Shown: positions 2,799-62,521 of the stretch, one piece after another
Position numbering within the stretch: position 1 is the stretch's first letter
Layout: every line of letters starts with the position of its first letter
From: Eledone cirrhosa
Lineage: Eukaryota
Assembly: GCA_964016885.1 (NCBI GenBank)
Contig: OZ024747.1
Span: 70,928,001 to 70,992,000 of the forward strand
DNA length: 64,000 nt
Direction of reading: 5' to 3'
Notes under the pieces: generated by a model
Told to the model about the DNA's origin: nothing
Databases searched by the model: none
The model's input: the letters and a program-made list of their open reading frames with translations, nothing else
Made by a program: the position numbers and the translations under genes

Positions 2799-2800
<2 letters not shown>
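2702..2800 (+). mobile_element. Family D two-ended mini-insertion
   Basis: Inverted TAGGAAC followed by CTACTGGTTCCTATTACCCAC...TTTCCTTCGTT, matching 49248-49339; between (TA)n tracts. Confidence 0.75.
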
Positions 2801-2865
<65 letters not shown>

Positions 2866-2905
2866 ATATATTATATATATATATATATATTATATATATA
2901 TATAA

Positions 2906-4540
2906 GAGTATAGACATAGAATATTCGAAAATATTCTGTATGTTTATAATAAACATTTTGAAGACCTAATCGCTATAGAATAGAATACGTCACGTATTAC
3001 AATTAGATTCTCGATAAAAGCAAGGGAAGTAATCTACGCGTTTCATTCTTGTTAGAATTCATCAGGACTACATATCCAGTGCTTTTATCGAGAATGACAC
3101 AGCTAGAGACTTATAGAATACTTAGCTGTGTACTGGAACTGGTTTGAAAGAGCGGTTGCCGGTCCGGCAGAAATTAGAAATTGGAATAAATGCTCTGAAA
3201 TAGCGATATATATGTGAGTATAGACATAGAATATTCGAAAATATTCTGTATGTTTATAATAAACATTTTGAAGACCTAATCGCTATAGAATAGAATACGT
3301 CACGTATTACAATTAGATTCTCGATAAAAGCAAGGGAAGTAATCTACGCGTTTCATTCTTGTTAGAATTCATCAGGACTACATATCCAGTGCTTTTATCG
3401 AGAATGACACAGCTAGAGACTTATAGAATACTTAGCTGTGTACTGGAACTGGTTTGAAAGAGCGGTTGCCGGTCCGGCAGAAATTAGAAATTGGAATAAA
3501 TGCTCTGAAATAGCGATATATATGTGAGTATAGACATAGAATATTCGAAAATATTCTGTATGTTTATAATAAACATTTTGAAGACCTAATCGCTATAGAA
3601 TAGAATACGTCACGTATTACAATTAGATTCTCGATAAAAGCAAGGGAAATAATCTACGCGTTTCATTCTTGTTAGAATTCATCAGGACTACATATCCAGT
3701 GCTTTTATCGAGAATGACACAGCTAGAGACTTATAGAATACTTAGCTGTGTACTGGAACTGGTTTGAAAGAGCGGTTGCCGGTCCGGCAGAAATTAGAAA
3801 TTAGAATAAATGCTCTGAAATAGCGATATATATGTGAGTATAGACATAGAATATTCGAAAATATTCTGTATGTTTATAATAAACATTTTGAAGACCTAAT
3901 CGCTATAGAATAGAATACGTCACGTATTACAATTAGATTCTCGATAAAAGCAAGGGAAGTAATCTACGCGTTTCATTCTTGTTAGAATTCATCAGGACTA
4001 CATATCCAGTGCTTTTATCGAGAATGACACAGCTAGAGACTTATAGAATACTTAGCTGTGTACTGGAACTGGTTTGAAAGAGCGGTTGCCGGTCCGGCAG
4101 AAATTAGAAATTGGAATAAATGCTCTGAAATAGCGATATATATGTGAGTATAGACATAGAATATTCGAAAATATTCTGTATGTTTATAATAAACATTTTG
4201 AAGACCTAATCGCTATAGAATAGAATACGTCACGTATTACAATTAGATTCTCGATAAAAGCAAGGGAAGTAATCTACGCGTTTCATTCTTGTTAGAATTC
4301 ATCAGGACTACATATCCAGTGCTTTTATCGAGAATGACACAGCTAGAGACTTATAGAATACTTAGCTGTGTACTGGAACTGGTTTGAAAGAGCGGTTGCC
4401 GGTCCGGCAGAAATTAGAAATTGGAATAAATGCTCTGAAATAGCGATATATATGTGAGTATAGACATAGAATATTCGAAAATATTCTGTATGTTTATAAT
4501 AAACATTTTGAAGACCTAATCGCTATAGAATAGAATACGT
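2906..4540 (-). repeat. 310-bp hammerhead tandem array (retrozyme), minus-strand arm, ~5.3 units
   Basis: TAGACATAGA recurs at 2911, 3221, 3531, 3841, 4151, 4461; ATCAGG core complement at 3061, 3371, 3681, 3991, 4301. Confidence 0.95.
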
Positions 4541-7500
4541 CCTGATGAATTCTAACAAGAATGAAACGCGTAGATTACTTCCCTTGCTTTTATCGAGAAT
4601 CTAATTGTAATACGTGACGTATTCTATTCTATAGCGATTAGGTCTTCAAAATGTTTATTATAAACATACAGAATATTTTCGAATATTCTATGTCTATACT
4701 CACATATATATCGCTATTTCAGAGCATTTATTCCAATTTCTAATTTCTGCCGGACCGGCAACCGCTCTTTCAAACCAGTTCCAGTACACAGCTAAGTATT
4801 CTATAAGTCTCTAGCTGTGTCATTCTCGATAAAAGCACTGGATATGTAGTCCTGATGAATTCTAACAAGAATGAAACGCGTAGATTACTTCCCTTGCTTT
4901 TATCGAGAATCTAATTGTAATACGTGACGTATTCTATTCTATAGCGATTAGGTCTTCAAAATGTTTATTATAAACATACAGAATATTTTCGAATATTCTA
5001 TGTCTATACTCACATATATATCGCTATTTCAGAGCATTTATTCCAATTTCTAATTTCTGCCGGACCGGCAACCGCTCTTTCAAACCAGTTCCAGTACACA
5101 GCTAAGTATTCTATAAGTCTCTAGCTGTGTCATTCTCGATAAAAGCACTGGATATGTAGTCCTGATGAATTCTAACAAGAATGAAACGCGTAGATTACTT
5201 CCCTTGCTTTTATCGAGAATCTAATTGTAATACGTGACGTATTCTATTCTATAGCGATTAGGTCTTCAAAATGTTTATTATAAACATACAGAATATTTTC
5301 GAATATTCTATGTCTATACTCACATATATATCGCTATTTCAGAGCATTTATTCCAATTTCTAATTTCTGCCGGACCGGCAACCGCTCTTTCAAACCAGTT
5401 CCAGTACACAGCTAAGTATTCTATAAGTCTCTAGCTGTGTCATTCTCGATAAAAGCACTGGATATGTAGTCCTGATGAATTCTAACAAGAATGAAACGCG
5501 TAGATTACTTCCCTTGCTTTTATCGAGAATCTAATTGTAATACGTGACGTATTCTATTCTATAGCGATTAGGTCTTCAAAATGTTTATTATAAACATACA
5601 GAATATTTTCGAATATTCTATGTCTATACTCACATATATATCGCTATTTCAGAGCATTTATTCCAATTTCTAATTTCTGCCGGACCGGCAACCGCTCTTT
5701 CAAACCAGTTCCAGTACACAGCTAAGTATTCTATAAGTCTCTAGCTGTGTCATTCTCGATAAAAGCACTGGATATGTAGTCCTGATGAATTCTAACAAGA
5801 ATGAAACGCGTAGATTACTTCCCTTGCTTTTATCGAGAATCTAATTGTAATACGTGACGTATTCTATTCTATAGCGATTAGGTCTTCAAAATGTTTATTA
5901 TAAACATACAGAATATTTTCGAATATTCTATGTCTATACTCACATATATATCGCTATTTCAGAGCATTTATTCCAATTTCTAATTTCTGCCGGACCGGCA
6001 ACCGCTCTTTCAAACCAGTTCCAGTACACAGCTAAGTATTCTATAAGTCTCTAGCTGTGTCATTCTCGATAAAAGCACTGGATATGTAGTCCTGATGAAT
6101 TCTAACAAGAATGAAACGCGTAGATTACTTCCCTTGCTTTTATCGAGAATCTAATTGTAATACGTGACGTATTCTATTCTATAGCGATTAGGTCTTCAAA
6201 ATGTTTATTATAAACATACAGAATATTTTCGAATATTCTATGTCTATACTCACATATATATCGCTATTTCAGAGCATTTATTCCAATTTCTAATTTCTGC
6301 CGGACCGGCAACCGCTCTTTCAAACCAGTTCCAGTACACAGCTAAGTATTCTATAAGTCTCTAGCTGTGTCATTCTCGATAAAAGCACTGGATATGTAGT
6401 CCTGATGAATTCTAACAAGAATGAAACGCGTAGATTACTTCCCTTGCTTTTATCGAGAATCTAATTGTAATACGTGACGTATTCTATTCTATAGCGATTA
6501 GGTCTTCAAAATGTTTATTATAAACATACAGAATATTTTCGAATATTCTATGTCTATACTCACATATATATCGCTATTTCAGAGCATTTATTCCAATTTC
6601 TAATTTCTGCCGGACCGGCAACCGCTCTTTCAAACCAGTTCCAGTACACAGCTAAGTATTCTATAAGTCTCTAGCTGTGTCATTCTCGATAAAAGCACTG
6701 GATATGTAGTCCTGATGAATTCTAACAAGAATGAAACGCGTAGATTACTTCCCTTGCTTTTATCGAGAATCTAATTGTAATACGTGACGTATTCTATTCT
6801 ATAGCGATTAGGTCTTCAAAATGTTTATTATAAACATACAGAATATTTTCGAATATTCTATGTCTATACTCACATATATATCGCTATTTCAGAGCATTTA
6901 TTCCAATTTCTAATTTCTGCCGGACCGGCAACCGCTCTTTCAAACCAGTTCCAGTACACAGCTAAGTATTCTATAAGTCTCTAGCTGTGTCATTCTCGAT
7001 AAAAGCACTGGATATGTAGTCCTGATGAATTCTAACAAGAATGAAACGCGTAGATTACTTCCCTTGCTTTTATCGAGAATCTAATTGTAATACGTGACGT
7101 ATTCTATTCTATAGCGATTAGGTCTTCAAAATGTTTATTATAAACATACAGAATATTTTCGAATATTCTATGTCTATACTCACATATATATCGCTATTTC
7201 AGAGCATTTATTCCAATTTCTAATTTCTGCCGGACCGGCAACCGCTCTTTCAAACCAGTTCCAGTACACAGCTAAGTATTCTATAAGTCTCTAGCTGTGT
7301 CATTCTCGATAAAAGCACTGGATATGTAGTCCTGATGAATTCTAACAAGAATGAAACGCGTAGATTACTTCCCTTGCTTTTATCGAGAATCTAATTGTAA
7401 TACGTGACGTATTCTATTCTATAGCGATTAGGTCTTCAAAATGTTTATTATAAACATACAGAATATTTTCGAATATTCTATGTCTATACTCACATATATA

Positions 7501-8766
7501 TCGCTATTTCAGAGCATTTATTCCAATTTCTAATTTCTGCCGGACCGGCAACCGCTCTTTCAAACCAGTTCCAGTACACAGCTAAGTATTCTATAAGTCT
7601 CTAGCTGTGTCATTCTCGATAAAAGCACTGGATATGTAGTCCTGATGAATTCTAACAAGAATGAAACGCGTAGATTACTTCCCTTGCTTTTATCGAGAAT
7701 CTAATTGTAATACGTGACGTATTCTATTCTATAGCGATTAGGTCTTCAAAATGTTTATTATAAACATACAGAATATTTTCGAATATTCTATGTCTATACT
7801 CACATATATATCGCTATTTCAGAGCATTTATTCCAATTTCTAATTTCTGCCGGACCGGCAACCGCTCTTTCAAACCAGTTCCAGTACACAGCTAAGTATT
7901 CTATAAGTCTCTAGCTGTGTCATTCTCGATAAAAGCACTGGATATGTAGTCCTGATGAATTCTAACAAGAATGAAACGCGTAGATTACTTCCCTTGCTTT
8001 TATCGAGAATCTAATTGTAATACGTGACGTATTCTATTCTATAGCGATTAGGTCTTCAAAATGTTTATTATAAACATACAGAATATTTTCGAATATTCTA
8101 TGTCTATACTCACATATATATCGCTATTTCAGAGCATTTATTCCAATTTCTAATTTCTGCCGGACCGGCAACCGCTCTTTCAAACCAGTTCCAGTACACA
8201 GCTAAGTATTCTATAAGTCTCTAGCTGTGTCATTCTCGATAAAAGCACTGGATATGTAGTCCTGATGAATTCTAACAAGAATGAAACGCGTAGATTACTT
8301 CCCTTGCTTTTATCGAGAATCTAATTGTAATACGTGACGTATTCTATTCTATAGCGATTAGGTCTTCAAAATGTTTATTATAAACATACAGAATATTTTC
8401 GAATATTCTATGTCTATACTCACATATATATCGCTATTTCAGAGCATTTATTCCAATTTCTAATTTCTGCCGGACCGGCAACCGCTCTTTCAAACCAGTT
8501 CCAGTACACAGCTAAGTATTCTATAAGTCTCTAGCTGTGTCATTCTCGATAAAAGCACTGGATATGTAGTCCTGATGAATTCTAACAAGAATGAAACGCG
8601 TAGATTACTTCCCTTGCTTTTATCGAGAATCTAATTGTAATACGTGACGTATTCTATTCTATAGCGATTAGGTCTTCAAAATGTTTATTATAAACATACA
8701 GAATATTTTCGAATATTCTATGTCTATACTCACATATATATCGCTATTTCAGAGCATTTATTCCAA
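4541..8766 (+). repeat. 310-bp hammerhead tandem array (retrozyme), plus-strand arm, ~13.6 units
   Basis: CCTGATGAATTC recurs every 310 bp from 4541 to 8571 (14 cores); ends ATTTATTCCAA+(TA)n. Confidence 0.95.
4846..4888 (+). ncRNA. Type I hammerhead ribozyme (representative unit, repeats every 310 bp)
   Basis: GTAGTC-CTGATGA-ATTC-TAACAA-GAAT-GAAA-CGCG-TA-GATTAC: stem I GTAGTC/GATTAC, stem II ATTC/GAAT, palindromic stem III ACGCGT, GUA site at 4882. Confidence 0.92.
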
Positions 8767-9426
8767 TATATATATAAATATATATATATGTATGTATGTA
8801 TATGTGTGTGTGTATGTATATATGCATTTGTTTGAGTGTTATCATATGTACTAAATATTAGCCTGCAACAGGAATAACAACAAAAAATTCATGCTGTTGT
8901 GGCTTCTGCTTTGCGTGCGATGTTATTATTTACCAACAACATTGTCCTAGTTAGTACTCATTTTCATGACCACCAAATAATATCATTATCATCGTATGCG
9001 TGTTTTGACGACGACTCTGATGACGACAGTGGTGAAATTGGGATGCTGTATTATGAAGAGTTTTTGAGAATGGTAATGTAGTGCTTGTAGTAATGGTGGG
9101 TTTGTTACTTGGGTAGATGTTGTTCTATAATTGCATTAAAACTTTTAAATATCTTCTAAAATGTATTTCTTTGTAGATGTTTCATGTTTAAATCTGTGTG
9201 TATGAATAGATGCAATGCAATGCACTCGATGCAATGCTTATCGATATCTGCGATGGGTATACATATATGTTTTATACGTGAGTATTGAATATTTCTATCA
9301 TGTGTAAGTGTGTCTTTCTTAAGACTACGTTACTGCTGTGGTGGGAATGTGGATTTTTATATGGCTACTGGTACACGTTTCATACATATGTTTATGTGCA
9401 TAAATAAGTGTTTAGTGTGGTATTCG

Positions 9427-16730: not shown

Positions 16731-17230
16731 CTAGCTGTCCCGCCCGGCTGGCGCCTGGCTAAGTATACCGGCATTTTATCTTTTCAGGATTCCCCCTTCA
16801 CTCCAGTGCAAAGATACCGCACGCCCTCTCAAGTCAGCGAAGGTGTGTGTGTGTGTGTTGGTTAACGTGTTCTAATGTTTTAGAATTCTCCATTTCAGCA
16901 GCAAGTACGTTAAAGAAAATTAATAGTTACAACTATAAAGGCTGAACAGAGAACACATTTTTTTAACAAACTTTACAATAATTTGTACAACCATAATGGA
17001 AATTCCAAGTAACAGAAAATACATAAATTACATTGTTAGAGCCTCGGAGTATACAATATTTTTTGTTCGGCCCTCGGGAGCAAAGATGAAGAGATTGTTT
17101 CGCGAGCTCACCATAGAGCATCCTACATATAATTGACCATGGGAGAAGCATGGTTTTCCCAGATGAAGGCCAGCCACTTTTAGGGTTTGACCCTGAGCTT
17201 TGTTGATGGTAATCGCGAAGCTTAGTCTTT
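16731..17230 (-). mobile_element. Helitron 3' part
   Basis: Minus strand ends with a GC-rich hairpin region then CTAG|T at 16731; helicase C-terminus lies upstream. Confidence 0.85.
17028..17230 (-). pseudogene. Helitron RepHel Pif1-like helicase C-terminal fragment
   Basis: LSFAITINKAQGQTLKVAGLHLGKPCFSHGQLYVGCS...TKNIVYSEAL. Confidence 0.9.
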
Positions 17231-17405
17231 CTGTTGCTCTAGTTACATTTTTTCTTCTGGAAAATCTGATCTCGTGACTTGTCTGGGACTTTTTGGGTGG
17301 CATATCGGTAGTAACAATGACGATAAGCCGTCTGTGCTTTCGTGAAATAAATACGTTTGTTTTTTTTTATTTTTGTGTATGCAAAAGTATCTGTACACGA
17401 ATATA

Positions 17406-17804: not shown

Positions 17805-17876
<72 letters not shown>

Positions 17877-18096
17877 CGTTTCTGAATTTGTTTAGCAAGA
17901 TTCTTTATCTGAAATCGTGTGTTGAAACCGATATTGTTATACTTTGGGAGGGTCATGTTGCCAATAAGAAACACACGCACCAGTTGCTTTCACTTCAATT
18001 TATTATATATTTATAAATTTATAAATTTACAAATCTACAAACTTATAAATTTCTGGTTGGTTGGTTGGTTCCACAACCAGATAGTTGTTTATATAT

Positions 18097-18141
18097 AGTC
18101 ATAGTCCTTTCGTCACACACTCTGTGACCTCTTCAGTGACT
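18097..18141 (-). ncRNA. Minimal type I hammerhead ribozyme, family B 3' UTR (minus arm)
   Basis: AGTCA-CTGAAGA-G-GTCAC..GTGAC-GAAA-GGAC-TA-TGACT. Confidence 0.75.
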
Positions 18142-18345
18142 GGGGATTCCTTTCTTTGTTTCTGTGCCTTTCCTTTCTTCTGTCCTACGCCATTTTGTTT
18201 TTGTGTGTGCGTTGTGTGCTCAGTTTGCGCATGCGCCACATCCGGGTGTCTGTGTTTGTTTGTGTTCATTTATCTATTTGTTTATTTATTTACATGTTGT
18301 TGGTTGGTTGTTTGTTCTATGTGTGTGTGTGTTTTCATTTTGTCC

Positions 18346-20168
18346 TTAATTGTAAGTTGTGATGTTGCTGTTCCACTCATATTTTCTATTTAATTTTGGT
18401 TGTAATTCTTTTATGCTTACTGCCTCTGTAATTTGCCTAAACATTGCATCTTTTCTGTGTGTGGATTCTATTTTTATTTCTATGTTCTCTAATTTACCCT
18501 TGTGTTCTATCTTAGCATGTTGGTAGAGTACAGATGATTCTTTATTATCTTGAAGGTCTCGCCAGTGTTCATTTATCCGTTCCCCTATACTACGAGCTGT
18601 CTCACCTATGTACACTATATTTTTGTTTCTACATTGTCCTTCAGTACATCTTATGCTATACACTACATTTCTAGTTTTACAGTTAAAATGGGGGCTTATT
18701 TTACAGGTTATACATTTCTTATCTATACATGAGGGTCTTTGGAACGGGTATGTCTTGCTAATAATGTTTTTACGGAGGTACCTGGTCTTTCTACTATCTT
18801 AATATTGAGTTTATGTTTATTTAGGGCCCTTCTAAATTTGTAGGCTAGTTCACCTCTAGGGGTTGTATTGATGAACATTACACTCTGGTATTTATTGCTA
18901 TCATACCATGAGTTTATTCTATTGGCCTTGTTCCTAGTTCTTTCTATTCTATTCCAAAATTTGCTCCTATACAAGGGGCTTGTCCCATTTATGTCATTAT
19001 TTACCATTTTTTGCCATTTGGTTCTGGCTCCTCTATACACTCTGATTCTATCTCTCTGATTGTAGCCAGAGAACTGCATACGGTGGATGAAGTGTTGTAT
19101 GTGTCTCTCTAGTTCTTCGGGGTTGCACATGCGGGACACATTTCTCATCACCCGTACCAAATCCGCAATCAGTATGTTGATTTTGGTATGGTCCGAAATG
19201 GCCGAGTTTCGGTGGATCAGATGTTTGGAAGTCATGGGTTTGGCATAATGGGAATGGAGGATTTGTTTTTGGTTGTTAATGGTATCTAACCAGAGCTCTG
19301 TGTCTAGTACAGGTAATCGATGGTTGGGGTGTCTACTTGGGTAGTCTATAGTAACTCTAATGCTCTGGTGGATGGAGTTTGCTATTTGCTGGATGCTTTC
19401 CATTGTGTTTTTCTCTAGTTCCTGACTGTTCTCTAGTGGGGGTGTCTTAACTACAATGTTTATATCATCTACGTAGCGGGAGTACATTATCAGGGTTAAG
19501 CTGTCTTCTAATTGTTCTTTAAGTTTAAGTTTAAGTCTACTGTCCCACCATACCATGAATAAGTTAGCTATGTCGCCTGCAATGCTAACACCAATGGCTG
19601 CTCCTTCCTCTTGGGCATATGTTTTTCCATTAAATTTGAACATATGTTCAAATGGTAGGTGGTCTGCCTCTTGCTGGTCTTGTAGGGCACAGGTTGCTAA
19701 GGTCATAAGTGTCTAGGTAACTATTACTATGGGTAAGCTTAAGTAGAAGTCCCAGCTCACTGGTATCAATCCCACGGAACTCAACCTTGCTCTCGCTGAT
19801 CATTTCTACGCATTTCTCCACAGCAAAATCCACGTCAATAGATGGATACAGGGACACAACATCCATACTGCCTATTATGCAGTTTGTTAGGTCCCAAGAT
19901 CGGTTACCCACGCCGATTCTGCCGAGGAGGTCCTCCGTGCTGTCACATACATCTGGGGACATCTCAATGATGGGGCGTATGATCAGGGAGAGGAAGTAGG
20001 ACAGTCTGTAGTTACTAGCAATGTTAGCTCCACAGACTGGCCGTGTTGGTGGTCCCGCGACAGGGTCACAGCCCGTTTTATGGTCTTTTCGAAGCCCATA
20101 CAACGCCGGCACGTCATTGTTCCAGGCCTGGAAGTTGTTGGCAGTCCTTTTGTTGGGCTGCATTATAT
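18346..20168 (-). pseudogene. PLE RT + GIY-YIG, disrupted copy
   Basis: Same protein as the plus arm, plus extra upstream RT motifs PALYGLRKDHK and RPVCGA; ~135-bp deletion near 19650 and frameshifts near 18720-18770. Confidence 0.9.
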
Positions 20169-21940
20169 CATACGCCCCATCATTGAGATGTCCCCAGATG
20201 TATGTGACAGCACGGAGGACCTCCTCGGCAGAATCGGCGTGGGTAACCGATCTGGGGGACCTAACAAACTGCATAATAGGCAGTATGGATGTTGTGTCCC
20301 TGTATCCATCTATTGACGTGGATTTTGCTGTGGAGAAATGCGTAGAAATGATCAGCGAGAGCAAGGTTGAGTTCCGTGGGATTGATACCAGTGAGCTGGG
20401 ACTTCTACTTAAGCTTACTCATAGTAATATTTACCTAGACACTTATGACCTTAGCAACCTGTGCCCTACAAGACCAGCAAGAGGCAGACCACCTACCATT
20501 ACCTCAATGGCCAAGAAAACCCACACAGATAGATGGAACGCGTGGACCAGAGCCATACGGACACCCGAAAACCACGATGAACTGAAGAAAATGATTGCAC
20601 ATGCGGTAGAGGCCAGCATAAAATTAACCCTTAAGGAACATATGTTCAAATTTAATGGAAAAACATATGCCCAAGAGGAAGGAGCAGCCATTGGTGTTAG
20701 CATTGCAGGCGACATAGCTAACTTATTCATGGTATGGTGGGACAGTAGACTTAAACTTAAACTTAAAGAACAATTAGAAGACAGCTTAACCCTGATAATG
20801 TACTCCCGCTACGTAGATGATATAAACATTGTAGTTAAGACACCCCCACTAGAGAACAGTCAGGAACTAGAGAAAAACACAATGGAAAGCATCCAGCAAA
20901 TAGCAAACTCCATCCACCAGAGCATTAGAGTTACTATAGACTACCCAAGTAGACACCCCAACCATCGATTACCTGTACTAGACACAGAGCTCTGGTTAGA
21001 TACCATTAACAACCAAAAACAAATCCTCCATTCCCATTATGCCAAACCCATGACTTCCAAACATCTGATCCACCGAAACTCGGCCATTTCGGACCATACC
21101 AAAATCAACATACTGATTGCGGATTTGGTACGGGTGATGAGAAATGTGTCCCGCATGTGCAACCCCGAAGAACTAGAGAGACACATACAACACTTCATCC
21201 ACCGTATGCAGTTCTCTGGCTACAATCAGAGAGATAGAATCAGAGTGTATAGAGGAGCCAGAACCAAATGGCAAAAAATGGTAAATAATGACATAAATGG
21301 GACAAGCCCCTTGTATAGGAGCAAATTTTGGAATAGAATAGAAAGAACTAGGAACAAGGCCAATAGAATAAACTCATGGTATGATAGCAATAAATACCAG
21401 AGTGTAATGTTCATCAATACAACCCCTAGAGGCGAACTAGCCTACAAATTTAGAAGGGCTCTAAATAAACATAAACTCAATATTAAGATAGTAGAAAGAC
21501 CAGGTACCTCCGTAAAAACACTTATTAGCAAGACATACCCGTTCCAAAGACCCTCATGTATAGATAAGAAATGTATAACCTGTAAAATAAGCCCCCATAT
21601 TAACTGTAAAACTAGAAATGTAGTGTATAGCATAAGATGTACTGAAGGACAATGTAGAAACAAAAATATAGTGTACATAGGTGAGACAGCTCGTAGTATA
21701 GGGGAACAGATAAATGAACACTGGCGAGACCTTCAAGATAATAAAGAATCATCTGTACTCTACCAACATGCTAAGATAGAACACAAGGGTAAATTAGAGA
21801 ACATAGAAATAAAAATAGAATCCACACACAGAAAAGATGCAATGTTTAGGCAAATTACAGAGGCAGTAAGCATAAAAGAATTACAACCAAAATTAAATAG
21901 AAAATATGAGTGGAACAGCAACATCACAACTTACAATTAA
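20021..21940 (+). CDS. PLE reverse transcriptase / GIY-YIG endonuclease polyprotein (5'-truncated; genuine frame from ~20258)
   Basis: GSMDVVSLYPSI, QEEGAAIG, MVWWD, RYVDD, LPVLD, CIDKKCITC...C linker, NVVYSIRC...YIGETAR..EH; the first ~78 codons are junction-derived. Confidence 0.92.
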   Translation: MLAPQTGRVGGPATGSQPVLWSFRSPYNAGTSLFQAWKLLAVLLLGCIISYAPSLRCPQMYVTARRTSSAESAWVTDLGDLTNCIIGSMDVVSLYPSIDVDFAVEKCVEMISESKVEFRGIDTSELGLLLKLTHSNIYLDTYDLSNLCPTRPARGRPPTITSMAKKTHTDRWNAWTRAIRTPENHDELKKMIAHAVEASIKLTLKEHMFKFNGKTYAQEEGAAIGVSIAGDIANLFMVWWDSRLKLKLKEQLEDSLTLIMYSRYVDDINIVVKTPPLENSQELEKNTMESIQQIANSIHQSIRVTIDYPSRHPNHRLPVLDTELWLDTINNQKQILHSHYAKPMTSKHLIHRNSAISDHTKINILIADLVRVMRNVSRMCNPEELERHIQHFIHRMQFSGYNQRDRIRVYRGARTKWQKMVNNDINGTSPLYRSKFWNRIERTRNKANRINSWYDSNKYQSVMFINTTPRGELAYKFRRALNKHKLNIKIVERPGTSVKTLISKTYPFQRPSCIDKKCITCKISPHINCKTRNVVYSIRCTEGQCRNKNIVYIGETARSIGEQINEHWRDLQDNKESSVLYQHAKIEHKGKLENIEIKIESTHRKDAMFRQITEAVSIKELQPKLNRKYEWNSNITTYN

Positions 21941-22144
21941 GGACAAAATAAAAACACACACACACATAGAACAAACAACCAACCAACAACATGTAAATAA
22001 ATAAACAAATAGATAAATGAACACAAACACACACAGACACCCGGATGTGGCGCATGCAAAAACTGAGCACACAACACACACACAGAAACAAAATGGCGTA
22101 GGACAGAAGAAAGGAAAGGCACAGAAACAAAGAAAGGAATCCCC

Positions 22145-22189
22145 AGTCACTGAAGAGGTCATAGAGTGTGGGACGAAAGATCTATGACT
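22145..22189 (+). ncRNA. Minimal type I hammerhead ribozyme, family B 3' UTR (plus arm)
   Basis: AGTCA-CTGAAGA-GGTC..GAC-GAAA-GATC-TA-TGACT with palindromic stem III AGATCT. Confidence 0.75.
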
Positions 22190-22347
22190 ATATATAAACA
22201 ACTATCTGGTTGTGGAACCAACCAACCAACCAGAAATTTATAAGTTTGTAGATTTGTAAATTTATAAATTTATAAATATATAATAAATTGAAGTGAAAGC
22301 AACTGGTGCGTGTGTTTCTTATTGGCAACATGACCCTCCCAAAGTAT

Positions 22348-22422
<75 letters not shown>

Positions 22423-30192: not shown

Positions 30193-30349
<157 letters not shown>

Positions 30350-37047: not shown

Positions 37048-37199
37048 TTGCTTTTATCGAGAATCTCAAATTGTAATACGTGACGTATTCTATTCTATAG
37101 CGATTAGGTCTTCAAAATGTTTATTATAAACATACAGAATATTCTCGAATATTCTATGTTTTTCTTCACATATATATCGCTATTTCAGAGCATTAAATC

Positions 37200-37202
<3 letters not shown>
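37048..37202 (+). mobile_element. Solo 5'-truncated fragment of the 310-bp retrozyme
   Basis: Matches 8614-8766 with a few substitutions and ends at the same TCCAA+(TA)n. Confidence 0.9.
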
Positions 37203-37602: not shown

Positions 37603-39254
37603 AACTCCTAGCACTGTGAATATTGATTTCTTTTGATTTCCTTCAAGTCGATCAGTTCTGTTAAAAAAATATCGTAAAACATATATACACACACATATAT
37701 ATATATATGTGTGTGTGCGTATGTGTGTGTGTATATATATATATGTGTGTGTGTGTGTGTATATGTGTGTGTATATATATTCCGGTGCCATTAAAACACT
37801 ATTAAAGATAATTGTTATGTTATCAAGACTGACACCAGGGCCCCTTTTCGGTAAATTTAAGGGTCATCATGCGTGATGTAATTACAATTGATATTGGCAA
37901 AGAGAAAAAAAAAAAATGTGAGTGAATGAAAAAAGAGAAAAAAAAAGAGGAGTAAAAGAATAGAGGAAAAAAGACAGGGAGTAAGAATAAATGGGAGAAT
38001 GGGTGCAAAATAAAGAGAGTGGGAAAGTGAGAGAGAGATAGTGAGAGAGAGGGAGAGAGGGAGAGGGAGAGGCAGAACAGAAATTAAGTGGAAAAGGGAA
38101 TGGAAGAATGAGCGAATGGGTGGAGAATGAGAAACTGATAAAATGAAGGAGAGGGTACGGGAGAGGGAATGGAAGGGGAGGGAGACTGGGAGAGGGAGAG
38201 GGAGAGGGAAGTGGAGGGGGAGAGAAAAATGGCGATGACAAGTTAGGGTTATCAACTATAAAAGGAACGGCAACAGAATAAAAAAACGACAAAGAACAAG
38301 GATCTGATATCGAAAGTGAAGATGGTGAAGTGTGTGTGTATATATGTGTGCGTGTATGTGTGTTTGGGTGTGTGTATGTGTGCGTGTGTATGGTTGTGTG
38401 TATGTGCGCGTGTGTGTGTTCATGCGTGTATGGTTGTGTTTATGTTTGTGTATATGTGCATGTATATGTGTATGGGTGTATGTATGTGCGTGTGTGTATA
38501 GTTGTGTTTATGTGTGTGTATGCTTGTTTTTATGTGCGTGTATGTGTGTATGGGTGTGTATGTGCGTGTGTATGGTTGCGTGTATGTGTGTGTGTGTGAG
38601 TATGGGTGTGTGTATGTACGTATGTGTATGGTGGGTTTTATGTGTGTGCGCGTATATGTATGTGTGTATGGGTATGTGTATGTGCATGGTTGTGTTTATG
38701 TGTGTGCGTTAGTGTGTATGTGTGTGTGTGTGCAGGATGCAGGCGTGCCTGTGTGTGGTAAAGGTATGTGAGAGAGTGAGAGGGGGGGGAGACTGAATGA
38801 TATGAGGATGGGGTGGTGGAAGGGGAGAGTGCAATGACAATGATGATAACAAAATAGACATGTTAAATAGAAATCAACTAAAGTAAAACAAAAAGCAGAG
38901 AAAAAAATCTAACATAAAAAGTTAAAAAAACATAAAAAACAGTAAGGTCAACAATAACAATAAAGCAGCAACAATAATAACAATAATAATACTGTTGATT
39001 ATTTTATTGGTCACAAGGGCAACGAGAGAAGGACTCACAAGAGACTGGATATAATCATAACAGGCGATATGATGGAACTTTAGAATAAGTGTCAATAGCA
39101 AGAACAACTCTCTCTCTCTTTCTCTCTCACATACACACTCTCTCTCTCTCTCTCTCACAGACATACACACACACTCTCTCTCTATGTGTATTGGATCTCC
39201 GTCTGTTCTGACGACGAATGACAACAACAATAACAACAATAATAACAATAATAA

Positions 39255-39725
39255 CAATTGTTTCTACTTTTGGCACAAGGCCAGCAATTAGCCCAGTACA
39301 TTACTGGTACTTTATTTTATCGACTCCGTAAGGATGAAAGGCAAAGTTAACCTCAGTAGGATTTGAACTGAGACCGTAAAGGGATGTAACTCTATGCTGC
39401 AAAGCATGGCGTCCGACCCTCTACCGATACTGCCAATCCAAATCCAATAATAATGATAATTATTTCTAGTTTTGGCACAAGGCCAGCAAATATCCCAGTG
39501 TATAACTGGTACTTTATTTCATCGACCCTCGTAGGGATGAAAGGCAAAGCTAACCTCGGCGGGATTTAAACTCGGAACGTAATTAATAATGTTTTCTGAT
39601 TTAGATACAAGGCCGTATGGATGAAAGGGTAAAAATAGTTTTTGATTTAGGTACAAGGCCAGCAATTTGAAGGGAAGGAGAAAGTTGAATAAATCTGGTA
39701 CTGGTACTTTATTTTATCGACCTCG
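39255..39725 (-). mobile_element. Cluster of 3-4 SINE family 1 copies or fragments
   Basis: Repeated GGCACAAGGCCAGCAA..CTGGTACTTTATTTTATCGAC..GGATGAAAGGCAAAG..GGATTTGAAC. Confidence 0.8.
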
Positions 39726-41757: not shown

Positions 41758-43093
41758 CACATACATGCACATACATATATATATATACATACATACATAC
41801 ATACACACATATATATATATATATATAGATCACTACTACCAACACAATCTCTCACGGCTAAAGGGAGGAAGGGCGTCGGGGTAGGTTGAGGCGAGAATTG
41901 ATTGACGGAGATGGTGGAGAACGGAGATGGTTGACAAAGGTTGCTGAAGGTTGGTTGAGGCTGGTCGAGGCTGGCGGAAGCTGGTGGAGGTTGGCGAAGG
42001 CTGGCAATGTCAGCGCCAGAGCTGTTCTTGTTTGTGACACCATATTGTTGGGGGAGGCAGTCTTCTTGAATTTTAAATATTTGGATACCTCTTAGCTGAG
42101 TGTTCGGAAACCACAATTAATTTACAATGACATTGTCCCGATTAAACTGAAAAGCTGAGATTAAGTAGATTTGCTTATTTGATCACATGAAATACGCAGG
42201 ATAGCATAAAAAATAGAAGGCAAAATAAAAACAACGGAGAGAATAAAAAAAGGAGATAAAGAGAAAAAATATAAAAGGAAAGTAAAGAAAAGAGTAAAAA
42301 TGGCGCGGCTGTCGCCATTTTAAATTGATTCTTAAAGGGACGCGTCAAGTTGGTGTTATATACAAAGAGAAATTAAACTGTTCAACAGAAAACCGTTACA
42401 GAATAAGTTAATGGAGGAAACAAAATGTTATATATCATTAATGCTAATGAAGACCGCTCCCAGTATAAATATTTTTTATATTGGTTGCATACTTTTTTTT
42501 CATTCTCGTTGATTTTACGAGCTGACACAAATTGATATCATTAATTTGCTATATTAATAGAAAATATATGTATCTATCGCGTTTCTTTGCTTGTTCAACG
42601 TTCTATGTATCTATTTAACGGTCTAACGTTCATAGAAAAAAGAAATTGCGGTATATTTATGTGCTGTGACAAGAAAACATATATATATAACGTTTCGCGT
42701 ATTGCTGTTTCAGTCTCCTATGAAGGGATTTTTCCAGCGTCGTTCAATATTATGGCTCCTCAGGGTGTACCGATTTACCTTAACTTTCCCCTTTTACTAA
42801 ATTGATCTAGCTGGCGTATACTATGGCTAGTCTCTCAGAATTCTAACGATTATATTTGCGTTTGTGTATGTTCTACTTGTTTATAAAAGGATTCCGGTGG
42901 TCCATATTTTCAATTCAATTTTTACAGCTTGGGTGTGTTCGATAACACAACAGACTGTATATTGATTAAGGTTGGAGAAAATGAGATAATTTAATCAGGA
43001 TACGATACACAAAACTGTTGGTATTTGAAGCAGTCGTTTCGATAAAACTTTATTCTATAGTGTTTAAATATTTATTATTGTTTTTTTATGTAT

Positions 43094-43232
43094 AGAGTTA
43101 CGGTCCTTGCCATTCTGAGTTCAAATCCCGCCGAGGATAACTTTGCCTTTCATCCTTACAGGGTCGATAAAATAAAGTACCAGTAATGCACTGGGTATTT
43201 GCTGGCCTTGTGCCAAACGTAGAAACAATTAT
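43094..43232 (+). mobile_element. SINE family 1 (5'-truncated)
   Basis: GAGTTCAAATCCCGCCGAGG..GGGTCGATAAAATAAAGTACCAGT..GGCCTTGTGCC. Confidence 0.8.
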
Positions 43233-44289
43233 TGTTTATTGTTAATTTTAAGTGATATACTTGTTGTTGTTTATCGTCAGGGTTTCCAGGTTTGGTCAGC
43301 CTGCAATTTTGTACATCAGCGATAATATCTGTAATACGGTATGGTGTGGTTTTGAGAGAGGTTTTGCTATTACGAGAGGGACTAAATACCACGTTTAGAG
43401 GTTCAGTCGTGGTATATATCTCACTTATTTGTTTGTGTGTGTTGAGGGCCATGCGGGGGAAGAGCTCGGTATAGCTGAACTTAGTCATGGACGTTGAGCT
43501 GCACTTCTAGATACCTTGCGTCACTAGAGCTAGTTGTAAGGAATAACAACATGATTTCACTGAGGAAATCAGTTATTGATTAACGAACATGCTATCAAAA
43601 AGATCTATGTTGAGTACTCTAACAATTGTATATTGATGTTAAGGACGTATTTATGTGTTTATATACGTTACTGTTGCGTTTATATACGTTACTGTTGCTT
43701 CACCAACTTGAGCACTCGGTGCATAGGTGGGTCCGTTTAAGTATAGTACGTGGTGTTATATACGTGGTGTTATATATGTGGTGTTATACTATGGTCGGTT
43801 TCTTTCATAAGCAGAGTGTAATATTAATAATTGCAAATTTCACATTGTTTCTTCGGTTTGCAATAGTGGTACATAAAAAAAGTGGTAAAAAAAAAACACA
43901 AACAAAAAAGAACATTGTAATTAAACCTAGGTGTACTAGACTTTTGAGAATAAAGTGTCTTCCTAACGAACAAACCGCAGTGCCAGTGAGAGGCTCTCAC
44001 GTTGATCACCATTCTGATGGCTATATGCATTCCCATTTCAGCTAAATATTTGAAATCATGGCGACAAAGGAAAGCCTGAATAAATGCATTGCATAGTTCA
44101 GTTTCTTCATTTTCCATTCCCATTTGAATTCCAAATAAATGCTTCTTAGTCCATTCGTAAACTCGATAGCAACATTGCAAGTCGGTATCACAACAATCGA
44201 CATCACTCATCTTTAAGAAATGACGTTGAAGAAATGGGAAATAACAGCTGATAACATCGCTTCTATTGTTGCCATCCAAATATACATGA

Positions 44290-53950: not shown

Positions 53951-54419
53951 CTTGGTACACACTATACATTTTAATACATTTGCAATGAAAATAATTTATT
54001 CACAATATTTATGCACTGAGGCTAAATCATCATGAGCTCAATGATTGCATCATTTATATAACGTCTTGACAAGTAAGATGGACACCTCTGAATATGTATC
54101 ACATATAACAGACTTTTTTGTCGGAGTATAACATTCTCCGTATTTGCCATAAGACAAAAAGTATATTGATGTACAATTATACTAGCGACTGAAGGAAACT
54201 ACTCAGAGGCACCATCCACACGATAGATAACAATTTATGTTTCCTACCATATTTAATGTATTAAGGAAAATATCGAATTAATTAATCAACAATAGTTACG
54301 TACGTAAAAAATCTTTGACTAATAATATTTTAATCTGATTTTCGCAAGTAGGGGCAGCAATCGTAAATATGTTTCGGTCCCATTAAACCACATCAACGTC
54401 CATACCATCATAATGATGT

Positions 54420-55080
54420 CTAGTATAGGCACAAGGCCAATAATTTGGCAGGAGGGAAAAGTCGATTGAATCGACCCCAGTACGTTACTGGTGCCTTATT
54501 TTATCGACTCCGGTAAGGATGAAAGGCAGAGTTAATCTAAAGGCAGGATTTGAACTCAGACCATAAAGGGCCGTAACTCATGGTGTCCTACGCCCTACCA
54601 ATACTGCCAATCCATCGCCCTCACTCCCATATCATAATAAGGATTTCTTGTATGGGCACAATGCCAGTAATTTGGTGGGAGGGGAAATCCGATTAAATCG
54701 ACCCTAGTAAGTTACTGGTACTATATTTTATCGACCCCGTAAGGATGAAAGCAAAGTTAACCTCGGCGGGATTTGAACTCAGACCATAAACGGAGGTAAC
54801 TCTATGCTTCAAAGCATGGCGCCCGACCCTCTACCGATACTGCCAATCCACCATTACTACCATAATAAAGATTTCTAGTATAGGCACAAGGCCAGTAATT
54901 TGGGGAAGGGGAAAGTCGATTAAATCGACCCCAGTACGTTACTGGTGCCTTATTTTATCGACCTCGTAAGGATGAAAGGCAAAGTTAACCTCGACGGGAG
55001 TTGAACTCAAACCGTAAAGGGATGTAACTATGCTAGAAAGCATGGCATCCAACCCTCTATTGATACTGCTAATTCACATA
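54420..55080 (-). mobile_element. Three head-to-tail SINE family 1 copies
   Basis: Units of ~225 bp at ~54420, ~54645 and ~54872, each with GGCACAA.GCCA..ATCGACCC.AGTA..TTGAACTCA. Confidence 0.85.
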
Positions 55081-56224
55081 CTATAATAATGAGAAGAGAA
55101 TCATTGATTTGTAACCTTGAGCTTCAGTATGATATCCGCTATTCAATATCTAGAATTATGTTGAGAACGCGTTATTACAAGATGCGACCAAAAGGTAGAT
55201 TTAATCCCCAAATAAATTTAAGTAATTTCCCTTACGTAGCTGCATTTTTAAAAAACAAAATGACATTTACTCTATCCCATTTCTTAACTATGAGTGAAGG
55301 TATCATAATTGAATGTTTAAAAAGTTAACTTTGCAATCATTAGATCACAGGTTCGATTCTGTTCTGTGGCAGCTTGAACAAGTGTTATTATAGCGTTTGG
55401 TCAACAGAAATATTTAAAGTGAAATTGGGTTGTCGGAACTGGCTTGAAAACTCATTGGATGGACTGTATCTAATTCAAAGGACCACCCTTGTCACACTGT
55501 CACGCTGAATCTTTTTAAGGATTATGTTAAAAGTATACGTGACTATGGAATGTTCTGCCAGTTACGTGGTAATTTCAAGAACAGGCTCTTCCGTTGTTCG
55601 TAAAACTGGAACATCCATCGTCGAAACCGCCGGAAAGCCATGAAATTCTACAATATTTGCGTATAGTCGAATGAAGCCATCATAAAATAAGGTAACGTTT
55701 TCTACATGATAGCGCTATATGCCTGATCTTTAGCCGAGAACTAATGCTCTTTGGAAATAGCAAAGATATTCTGTCAAATTTCAATACTATAAAATACTGT
55801 CTTTGGCCTAGTTAAAAGAAACAAATATTTATGTAATGCATAGATCTTCGTAGGTTTGCAATCTTTAGACAGACTTAGCATGACAGTGTGTGGCAAAGTT
55901 GGTCCATTGAATTATAAGTATAATCGATCTGACGGGCTCCTCAAAGATTGTCAGCCCGACCTCCTTCAAAATAATTTAAAAAGTTTTACTAATTAGCATA
56001 CTAGATATTGTAACTAAAACCTAACCATGTTACGTTGACGTCATGTCATTATACTTATGCCATATGAACCAATCAATTTCGATTGGTAGAATATTAATAG
56101 ATATTTTAAGCTCTAGACGTATTTGCATGACAATCCGGGAATATGGTTAAAGAGAATGTATCAATGATTTACTAAAATTGAAATTAATCTTCAGATATCA
56201 ATAGCTAATTAATAATTGATTTCT

Positions 56225-61801: not shown

Positions 61802-62143
61802 TGTGACAAGAGTCATATAATAAGAAGTACGAGAGAAAAGGCATGATATTGCATAGATAGCAGTGAGGGTAATGTGGATGTTTGACATACTGAGAGAGAG
61901 ATGTGTATGAGTTGTAATGAATCATTGGAATAGGAGATAGCTTAGTATATAACGTGTGACTGAAATATATATAGATCAACTGATGAATTAAGAGCCATGT
62001 AGACGGGAAAGAGTGAGAGAGAGAGGGATGAAGGAAAGAGAGAAAGGTAAAATGATTGGAGTAAAGTGGGACCGATGGGGAGACAGAAATGGACAAATAT
62101 TAACCTTCACATAGTTGTGAGTTTCATTATTTTATTAGCTCAA

Positions 62144-62334
62144 GGGCGGTGGATTGGCTGTATCGGTAGAGGGTTGGACGCCATGCTTTCCAACATAGTT
62201 ATGTCCCCTTATGATATAAGTTCAAATCCCGCCGAGGTTGACTTTACCTTTCATCCTTACGGGGTCGATAAAATAAAGTACCAGTAATGCACTGGGTAAT
62301 TGCTGGCCTTGTGCCTAAAGTAGAAACAATTATT
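62144..62334 (+). mobile_element. Near full-length SINE family 1
   Basis: GGCGGTGGATTGGC start, GTTCAAATCCCGCCGAGG, GGGGTCGATAAAATAAAGTACCAGT, AT-rich tail. Confidence 0.85.
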
Positions 62335-62521
62335 TTATTGTAAAATATAATAAGCACAATAGACTGAGAGGGAGAGAGGAAGAGAGTGTGAGTTGAGAAA
62401 AGTTGATTTTTTAAATGACTTAAGAATGTTTGTGTTCTTTAAAGAATTTAAGGGAAGAACGAGCTAATTTGATGTCCTCTGTCTCTCTCTCTCCACACAT
62501 TCTCTCTCACACATACAAAGA

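Follow-up and report, generated by a model that had tools for sequence, protein, structure and literature searches.

Two-armed arrays of a young 310-base hammerhead retrozyme in TA repeats of Eledone cirrhosa, and their likely copying from a circular RNA

How a small non-coding RNA with a self-cleaving ribozyme might return to the genome is the question raised by a tandem repeat in a 64,000-nucleotide stretch of the Eledone cirrhosa genome (assembly GCA_964016885.1, contig OZ024747.1, positions 70,928,001 to 70,992,000), hereafter the window. The repeat consists of 310-bp units with a hammerhead ribozyme motif in each complete unit. For retrozymes of animals, mobilisation of the circular RNA by Penelope-like elements (PLEs) and copying of the circle have been proposed (PMC7229834; 10.64898/2026.07.22.740005), the latter paper stating that the mechanism “remains to be elucidated”; the present arrays bear on that proposal. 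We assign a probability of roughly 0.68 to the following reading: the family is a young, dispersed, non-coding 310-base animal retrozyme without long terminal repeats (non-LTR); its insertions lie in TA repeats, typically in the form of two diverging arms whose outer ends are fixed at two points, and were likely copied from one circular RNA by a Penelope-like reverse transcriptase/GIY-YIG enzyme that primed on both strands of the target. The architecture, the end positions, the microhomologies, some target-site duplications and the shared haplotypes are directly observed.

The original prediction described a single array at 2906 to 8766 of about 19 units of 310 bp, with only two substitutions. 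Tandem Repeats Finder returned two repeats, 2896-4541 (5.3 copies) and 4539-8767 (13.6 copies), each of period 310, so that the length (18.9 units) and the period stand, while the single array does not: the minus-strand arm at 2906-4541 is the reverse complement of the plus-strand arm at 4539-8767, and the two lie back to back rather than in one head-to-tail series. The substitution count was exact, as the plus arm has none and the minus arm exactly two. GC content is 34-35%, and (TA)n adjoins both outer ends. The plus strand carries fourteen ribozyme cores and the minus strand five; one plus-strand hammerhead, at 4542, is truncated, the joint having removed half of the 5' strand of its stem I. 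Positions within the unit are given below as U numbers, counted along the cut-to-cut unit 4883-5192.

2800..2905, no strand: left (TA)n target, ending in ATATATATAA (2896-2905); a 10-11-bp target-site duplication matching 8768-8777 is tentative because the sequence is of low complexity.
2906..4541, minus: putative inner-primed arm of 5.3 units with five complete hammerheads; outer end at U129, where the TA run makes any position from 129 to 139 possible; the two substitutions (3649 and 3803) fall in this arm.
4539..4541, no strand: joint of the arms, a 3-base microhomology (GTC, U44-46 and U277-279) inside the (TA)n-inserted array.
4539..8767, plus: putative tail-primed arm of 13.6 units without substitution, with 13 complete hammerheads and one truncated; outer end at U165.
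4846..4888, plus: representative type I hammerhead with stem I GTAGTC/GATTAC, core CTGATGA, stem II ATTCT/AGAAT, loop AACA, palindromic stem III ACGCGT and a predicted cut after A4882 (GUA).
4883..5192, plus: one unit from cut to cut, predicted to give a 310-nt monomer or circle; no ATG frame exceeds 30 aa.
4895..4910 (U13-28), plus: 5' strand of a 16-bp long stem, pairing with 5132-5147 (U250-265).
4960..4998 (U78-94 and U97-116), plus: twin hairpin, conserved in older sister families; candidate recognition signal for a PLE protein.
5005..5047, plus: two putative reverse-transcription start sites, inner at about U123-139 (AUAUAUAU) and tail at about U165; the roughly 26-40 nt between them would be a PLE-type tail.
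8742..8767 (U140-165), plus: one-sided tail of the window insertion, at the right outer end only.
8768..8820, no strand: right TA-rich target flank.

The same architecture recurs elsewhere in the 3.0-Gb assembly. Two samples were drawn, one of 20 loci picked solely by identity to the unit and one of 93 loci on one contig (C1) picked by end motifs. For the latter, the two junction lists combined supplied 52 loci, the tail list by itself 39 and the core list two, a choice that misses arrays with neither end. An inverted, 5'-truncated copy adjoined a direct copy, giving two divergent arms, in 18 of the 20 identity-chosen loci; once the array of the window was counted in, 18 of 19 had an outer end at U163-169 on one side and at U121-139 on the opposite side. 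Among the 93 loci, 75 were divergent, 18 single-stranded and none convergent. All but three of the 75 paired a tail end (about U165) with an inner end (about U120-139), leaving a one-sided PLE-type tail whose shortest reading is 26 nt; two of the three were cut by the fetched region and one was odd. In the subset selected by its tail end, the inner site lay at the opposite end in 32 of 32 uncut two-armed loci. Inspection of 17 single-stranded loci revealed a tiny tail arm in two, a short inverted piece in one and an N gap at the end of another. Both outer ends lie on the 3' side of the ribozyme strand, the orientation that priming of a cDNA by each cut DNA end would give. The longest arms reach 27 units, and the lengths of tail and inner arms show no difference (Wilcoxon p 0.14).

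Where the arms meet is, by contrast with their outer ends, not fixed. The inner joints are spread across the unit (Kolmogorov-Smirnov p 0.13), with only 2 of 146 within 10 nt of the ribozyme cut. Among 48 joints with both arms of at least 400 nt, 14 carried inserted bases, and 26 of the other 34 had a microhomology of at least 2 bases, against 18% at random. The targets are (TA)n or AT-rich. A strict duplication test, for which 23 of 72 loci were testable, detected target-site duplications 14-47 nt long in 7 of the 72, compared with 0.7 in shuffled pairs; a looser test was uninformative (31 versus 22 in controls). One insertion, L192, has a target other than TA, clearly duplicated over 15 bp. 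Stretches of foreign filler, 114-272 bp long, stand at or near the arm joint in three loci (L199:5262-5521, L153:1450-1721 and L226:879-992), and the filler of L199 has other copies in the genome.

The haplotypes of the arms bear on the number of templates per insertion. Of the 47 loci where each arm contains full units, 42 had the same haplotype in the two arms, as compared with 12% of random pairs, and in 4 of 25 loci a variant unique to the locus was present in every unit of both arms. With 34 array-wide haplotypes among 69 loci, new variants evidently become array-wide in one step, of which a monomer circle would be the simplest account; a single circular template thereby gains good indirect support. 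The original suggestion that such an array is a record of rolling-circle reverse transcription is likewise favoured by the array-wide haplotypes and by joints that do not cluster at the cut site.

These features recall what has been described for endonuclease-bearing (EN+) PLEs. A PLE protein is reported to cut and extend both strands of AT-rich DNA in vitro, with reverse transcription starting at two internal sites between which a 30-40-bp tail lies (PMC11167929), and PLE insertions are described as having an inverted copy, a one-sided tail and a (TA)n bias (PMC8557442, PMC3846280). The likeness, as far as those descriptions go, extends to the 5' truncation of the inverted copy, the tail of about 30 nt from two internal starts, AT-rich or (TA)n targets, extension of both strands and duplications of about 8-10 bp or more. 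The 310-nt family differs in having no open reading frame, in arms that are multimers of the unit, and in showing no homology to three coding PLE families of this genome. Non-autonomous Chlamys elements, for example MRC1 (PMC8557442), are described as non-coding PLE passengers with multicopy head-to-tail insertions, but most Chlamys are said to have no hammerhead, and the non-autonomous ones to hold their 3' end in common with an autonomous family, whereas no such partner was found for the 310-nt unit.

A model can thus be proposed in which a read-through transcript of the array would self-cleave as a double hammerhead into 310-nt monomers, which a host ligase may circularise; a lone circle, being unable to form stem III, would then be stable. 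A PLE protein would bind the twin hairpin (U78-116) and make a staggered cut in both strands of (TA)n, upon which one DNA end may prime near U165 and the other at the AUAUAUAU stretch (about U123-139). Both cDNAs would travel around the circle, for up to 27 turns, and their two 3' ends would be joined through microhomologies of 2-5 bases or filler DNA.

The first step of this model depends on the hammerhead. The motif GTAGTC-CTGATGA-ATTCT/AACA/AGAAT-GAA-ACGCGT-A-GATTAC, described originally and found again in each complete unit with its predicted GUA cut after A4882, comprises the full type I core (CUGANGA ... GAAA ... NUH) and three stems, of which stem I is open and stem III forms only between two copies. 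It is not a chance match: folding of the unit gives z = -4.4, and a search of the genome found the exact core 13,497 times and its reversed control not once. The minimum-energy structure of a two-ribozyme transcript (4836-5202) is a double hammerhead, with pair probabilities of 0.91-1.0 for the ACGCGU palindromes, 0.87-1.0 for the crossed stems I and about 0 for the monomer stem III, so that the originally suggested dimeric hammerhead stands as a fold, its cleavage being predicted. In the circular fold the monomer is self-paired, stems I and II remain formed and the hammerhead is unblocked. Across 10 sequences of 4 subfamilies (two older families, the 312-nt subfamily and the 310-nt family itself), both sides have changed in 8 of 13 hammerhead pairs, including the stem III palindrome (ACGCGT to ATGCAT), while slid controls gave 0-3; the rows are related, and the count is therefore not to be read as a probability. 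Among the 34 array-wide haplotypes, N7 is the sole conserved-core position altered, and the common changes preserve stem I pairing or fall in loop II or the base of stem II; the haplotype and change scans demanded a near-intact motif, and unit detection tolerated at most a single mismatch around the cut site. The unit thus has a well-supported type I hammerhead, predicted to self-cleave. Among ribozymes described so far, newt and axolotl satellite hammerheads (HHR_Amex1, PMC7229834) resemble it in a very weak stem III, a palindromic tetraloop cap and efficient cleavage expected only as a dimer, although the sequences are unrelated and the HHR_Amex1 type was assayed whereas the 310-nt unit was folded in silico.

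Assignment to the retrozymes follows from the family as a whole, for which a young, dispersed origin had been predicted and is borne out. On the forward strand, 848 tail and 1,004 inner junctions with TA were counted (reverse-strand counts being inflated by overlapping matches), which corresponds to about 1,700 arrays of about 8 units; sampled arrays had a median of 7.5 units. These numbers, with the 13,497 exact cores, dispose of a satellite confined to one locus. The circular unit encodes no protein in that its longest ATG frame is 30 aa and no open reading frame with reverse transcriptase and GIY-YIG domains was found. A simple scan for promoters detected no octamer and no Pol III A box on the ribozyme strand, and one B-box-like word with one mismatch; a sigma-70 scan was at chance level and is irrelevant in this host. 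Three runs of unknown kind each gave one 340-nt contig (310+30), which tandem DNA or a circle predicts equally, and were not used as evidence. Animal non-LTR retrozymes are described as dispersed 150-450 bp tandem repeats of low GC with a type I hammerhead per unit and no protein, with duplications of more than 4 bp when present and with PLEs in the same genome (PMC7229834; 10.64898/2026.07.22.740005). The 310-nt family matches them on every testable feature: unit size (310 bp), GC content, hammerhead, absence of a protein, dispersal and duplications. It departs from those descriptions in that theirs run head to tail and ours mostly as two divergent arms with fixed starts, and in that their circles were seen by northern blot and Xenopus homology to PLE pseudo-long-terminal-repeats (pLTRs) was found, whereas for the 310-nt family the circle is predicted and the three PLE families compared showed no homology. 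Term searches of PMC7229834 and 10.64898/2026.07.22.740005 found no passage on inverted arms, tail or orientation, while their supplements could hold examples, and a literature search by titles and abstracts found no two-armed or cephalopod retrozyme. The class is already published, and the two-armed PLE-type architecture is the most informative new part.

The family has relatives. A 312-nt subfamily has an identical layout, and several older non-coding families with different hammerheads terminate at the homologous point. At least three older non-coding hammerhead repeat families (L232-L291, L382-L385), with stem III ACGCGT, ATGCAT, ACAGCTGT and ACAGAATCTGT, have a hairpin module in common and end at the homologous tail point, one of them with the tail sequence almost unchanged. 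Within the window, a 155-bp piece of the 312-nt subfamily (37048-37202, U12-164) stops at the tail site in TA, and a decayed hammerhead-like motif similar to the unit core and stem II lies on the minus strand at 30210-30239.

Several points weigh against copying of one ribozyme circle by a PLE. Cleavage, transcript and circle are predictions. The Rfam search originally suggested as a check did not find the hammerhead, no match in the array reaching the gathering score (best, Hammerhead_HH9 at 23 bits versus a cut-off of 52, E 0.026). Of nine Xenopus retrozyme dimers described, eight did not cleave (10.64898/2026.07.22.740005), and insertion as reported in PMC11167929 did not require hammerhead cleavage. 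About 13 of the 93 loci are single-armed. The arms differ in 5 of 47 loci, three of them older arrays with one or two units per arm, the others being L184, which differs at U276, and L230, which differs at three sites; some insertions must accordingly have drawn on several templates or on a changing one. In L148, L152 and L153, variants of single units occur repeatedly, which fits a multimer template or later local duplication. Homology to the unit is absent from two Neptune-type PLE families and from the GIY-YIG family found at 82-2640 in the window, and Neptune tails are longer, at about 45-60 nt.

Some of these points suit an alternative in which PLE priming on both strands is retained but the RNA copied is a linear multimer, read from a source array and left uncut, as in a pLTR-like partial tandem, with the hammerhead slow or incidental and the circle unnecessary. 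Insertion of PAc from unprocessed RNA (PMC11167929), the uncleaved majority of tested Xenopus dimers and the repeated variants in the three loci just named would all be expected, and joints away from the cut fit an uncut multimer equally well. Against this, the 34 array-wide haplotypes in 69 loci and the private variants throughout both arms would require a one-unit bottleneck followed by long copying, arms extend to 27 units, and the double hammerhead, with its core kept intact, is the favoured fold of any multimer. We regard a linear template as unlikely, albeit a serious competitor to the circle.

Twin priming by long interspersed nuclear elements (LINEs) yields 5' inversions with microhomology. 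A retrozyme moved in this way by a LINE enzyme of RTE, CR1 or L1 type, rather than by a PLE, would account for inverted arms and microhomologous joints, and the 260-bp piece at the L199 joint resembles what we take to be a fragment of a LINE endonuclease. The arrays have neither poly(A) nor a 3' repeat tail and their ends are internal unit positions; the window moreover contains coding PLEs with the same footprint. Two fixed internal starts with a one-sided tail are also described as unseen in target-primed reverse transcription of non-LTR elements (PMC8557442), and involvement of a LINE appears very improbable. Slightly less credible still is an ordinary satellite spread at the DNA level (by extrachromosomal circles or unequal exchange), or an assembly artefact of fold-back reads: the window joint at 4540 is known from the assembly and the RNA of the unit is predicted, yet the fixed, strand-polarised ends, the complete lack of convergent arms, joints that are unique and not palindromic, the target-site duplications, the covariation of the ribozyme and the excess of A>G on its strand all stand opposed. 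Least probable of all is that one cDNA folds back and primes itself, or primes on an antisense template (the model of PMC3846280), with the second arm copying the first, which would account for shared haplotypes and the one-sided tail. A few joints do fall on the unit's own hairpins, but the model is largely refuted by arm lengths, since it predicts a shorter inner arm and the inner arm is the longer in 32 of 71 loci (in 20 by more than one unit). Joints offset by at most 20 nt number 11 of 71, where chance predicts 9.4.

PLE priming on both strands of the target invites the question of which enzyme and which signal might be involved. The hairpin U78-94 pattern occurs 1,798 times in the genome against 32 for the control, the pattern having used a four-base loop that leaves out the 310-nt family itself. 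In 14 sequences, 6 of 7 pairs of this hairpin are invariant, and 5 of 8 pairs of hairpin U97-116 show both-sided changes; as the rows were picked by the sequence of the first hairpin, only U97-116 is a fair test of covariation. The twin hairpin lies directly 5' of both start sites and is likely to be a binding signal, with a PLE protein as the candidate ligand. A search for a partner (other stem II with the same stem III, hairpin patterns, proteins of the three PLE families) returned non-coding sister families only; BLAST matches of the unit to Neptune ends were weak and of low complexity, and were discarded. Given the lack of homology to the three coding families and the tail lengths of Neptune, no partner PLE is named.

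The editing of the template is a further consideration. On short branches, array-wide changes read on the ribozyme strand comprise 15 A>G and 3 T>C (p 0.002), and single-unit changes 5 A>G and 9 T>C, the two classes differing (Fisher p 0.01). The 15 A>G changes fall at 8 sites, nine of them at U20 and U276; with so few sites, long branches skipped, and tolerance of G-U pairs able to give the same bias, A-to-I editing of the RNA template is a lead only. In L184, the four outer units of the tail arm have A at U276, and the innermost unit of that arm, like all six units of the other arm, has G, possibly through an edit or a template switch during copying. A fuller scenario would hold that each insertion is one 310-nt ribozyme circle copied repeatedly by a PLE dimer that starts from the two ends left by a staggered cut, that the conserved twin hairpin and the 26-nt tail are a loading signal by which a clan of non-coding circles hijacks the enzyme, and that A-to-I edits on the circle give the array-wide A>G changes; it is offered tentatively, its chances falling somewhat short of even. 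If it is true, these arrays would be direct evidence in the genome that a circular RNA of an animal undergoes rolling-circle reverse transcription. Exact predictions for a test in vitro follow from the roughly 1,700 young arrays, the two fixed starts, the single-template haplotypes and the conserved candidate hairpin. The arm lengths, in rejecting fold-back self-priming and favouring two-strand priming, bear on the origin of the inverted arms and one-sided tail of PLEs, and a circle copied into multi-kilobase arrays at TA repeats is relevant to RNA-templated insertion tools.

The window itself holds coding PLEs. An element at approximately 17876-22354, which we take from its motifs to be of Neptune type, is two-armed and one-tailed in (TA)n, as are the retrozyme arrays; it has a 642-aa open frame (20012-21940), arms 97-99% alike, its own hammerheads at about 18102-18136 and 22150-22182, and a tail of about 60 nt on the left arm only. 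Pfam gave a weak RVT_1 match only. Its family numbers 20,430 first-look candidates, with intact frames of about 1,280 aa. Four retrozyme arrays (L081, L145, L170 and L212) lie in a TA run at the very end of a Neptune-type PLE, a nested use of the same targets. A degraded PLE at 82-2640 contains a GIY-YIG frame (693-1451) and a 140-bp tandem repeat (2134-2412); its left arm is short and inverted, and a motif resembling a hammerhead lies near 2480-2530. It has 62,542 first-look candidates, and end fragments lie near 17.5k, 47.6k, 51.7k and 63.1k.

Elsewhere in the window, an open frame on the minus strand at 17028-17366 has no Pfam match and resembles, in its motif, the C-terminus of a Helitron/PIF1 helicase. 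A dispersed, partly tandem repeat of about 228 bp, at 54400-55090, 39208-39582, 43090-43280 and 62140-62350, is probably a short interspersed nuclear element.

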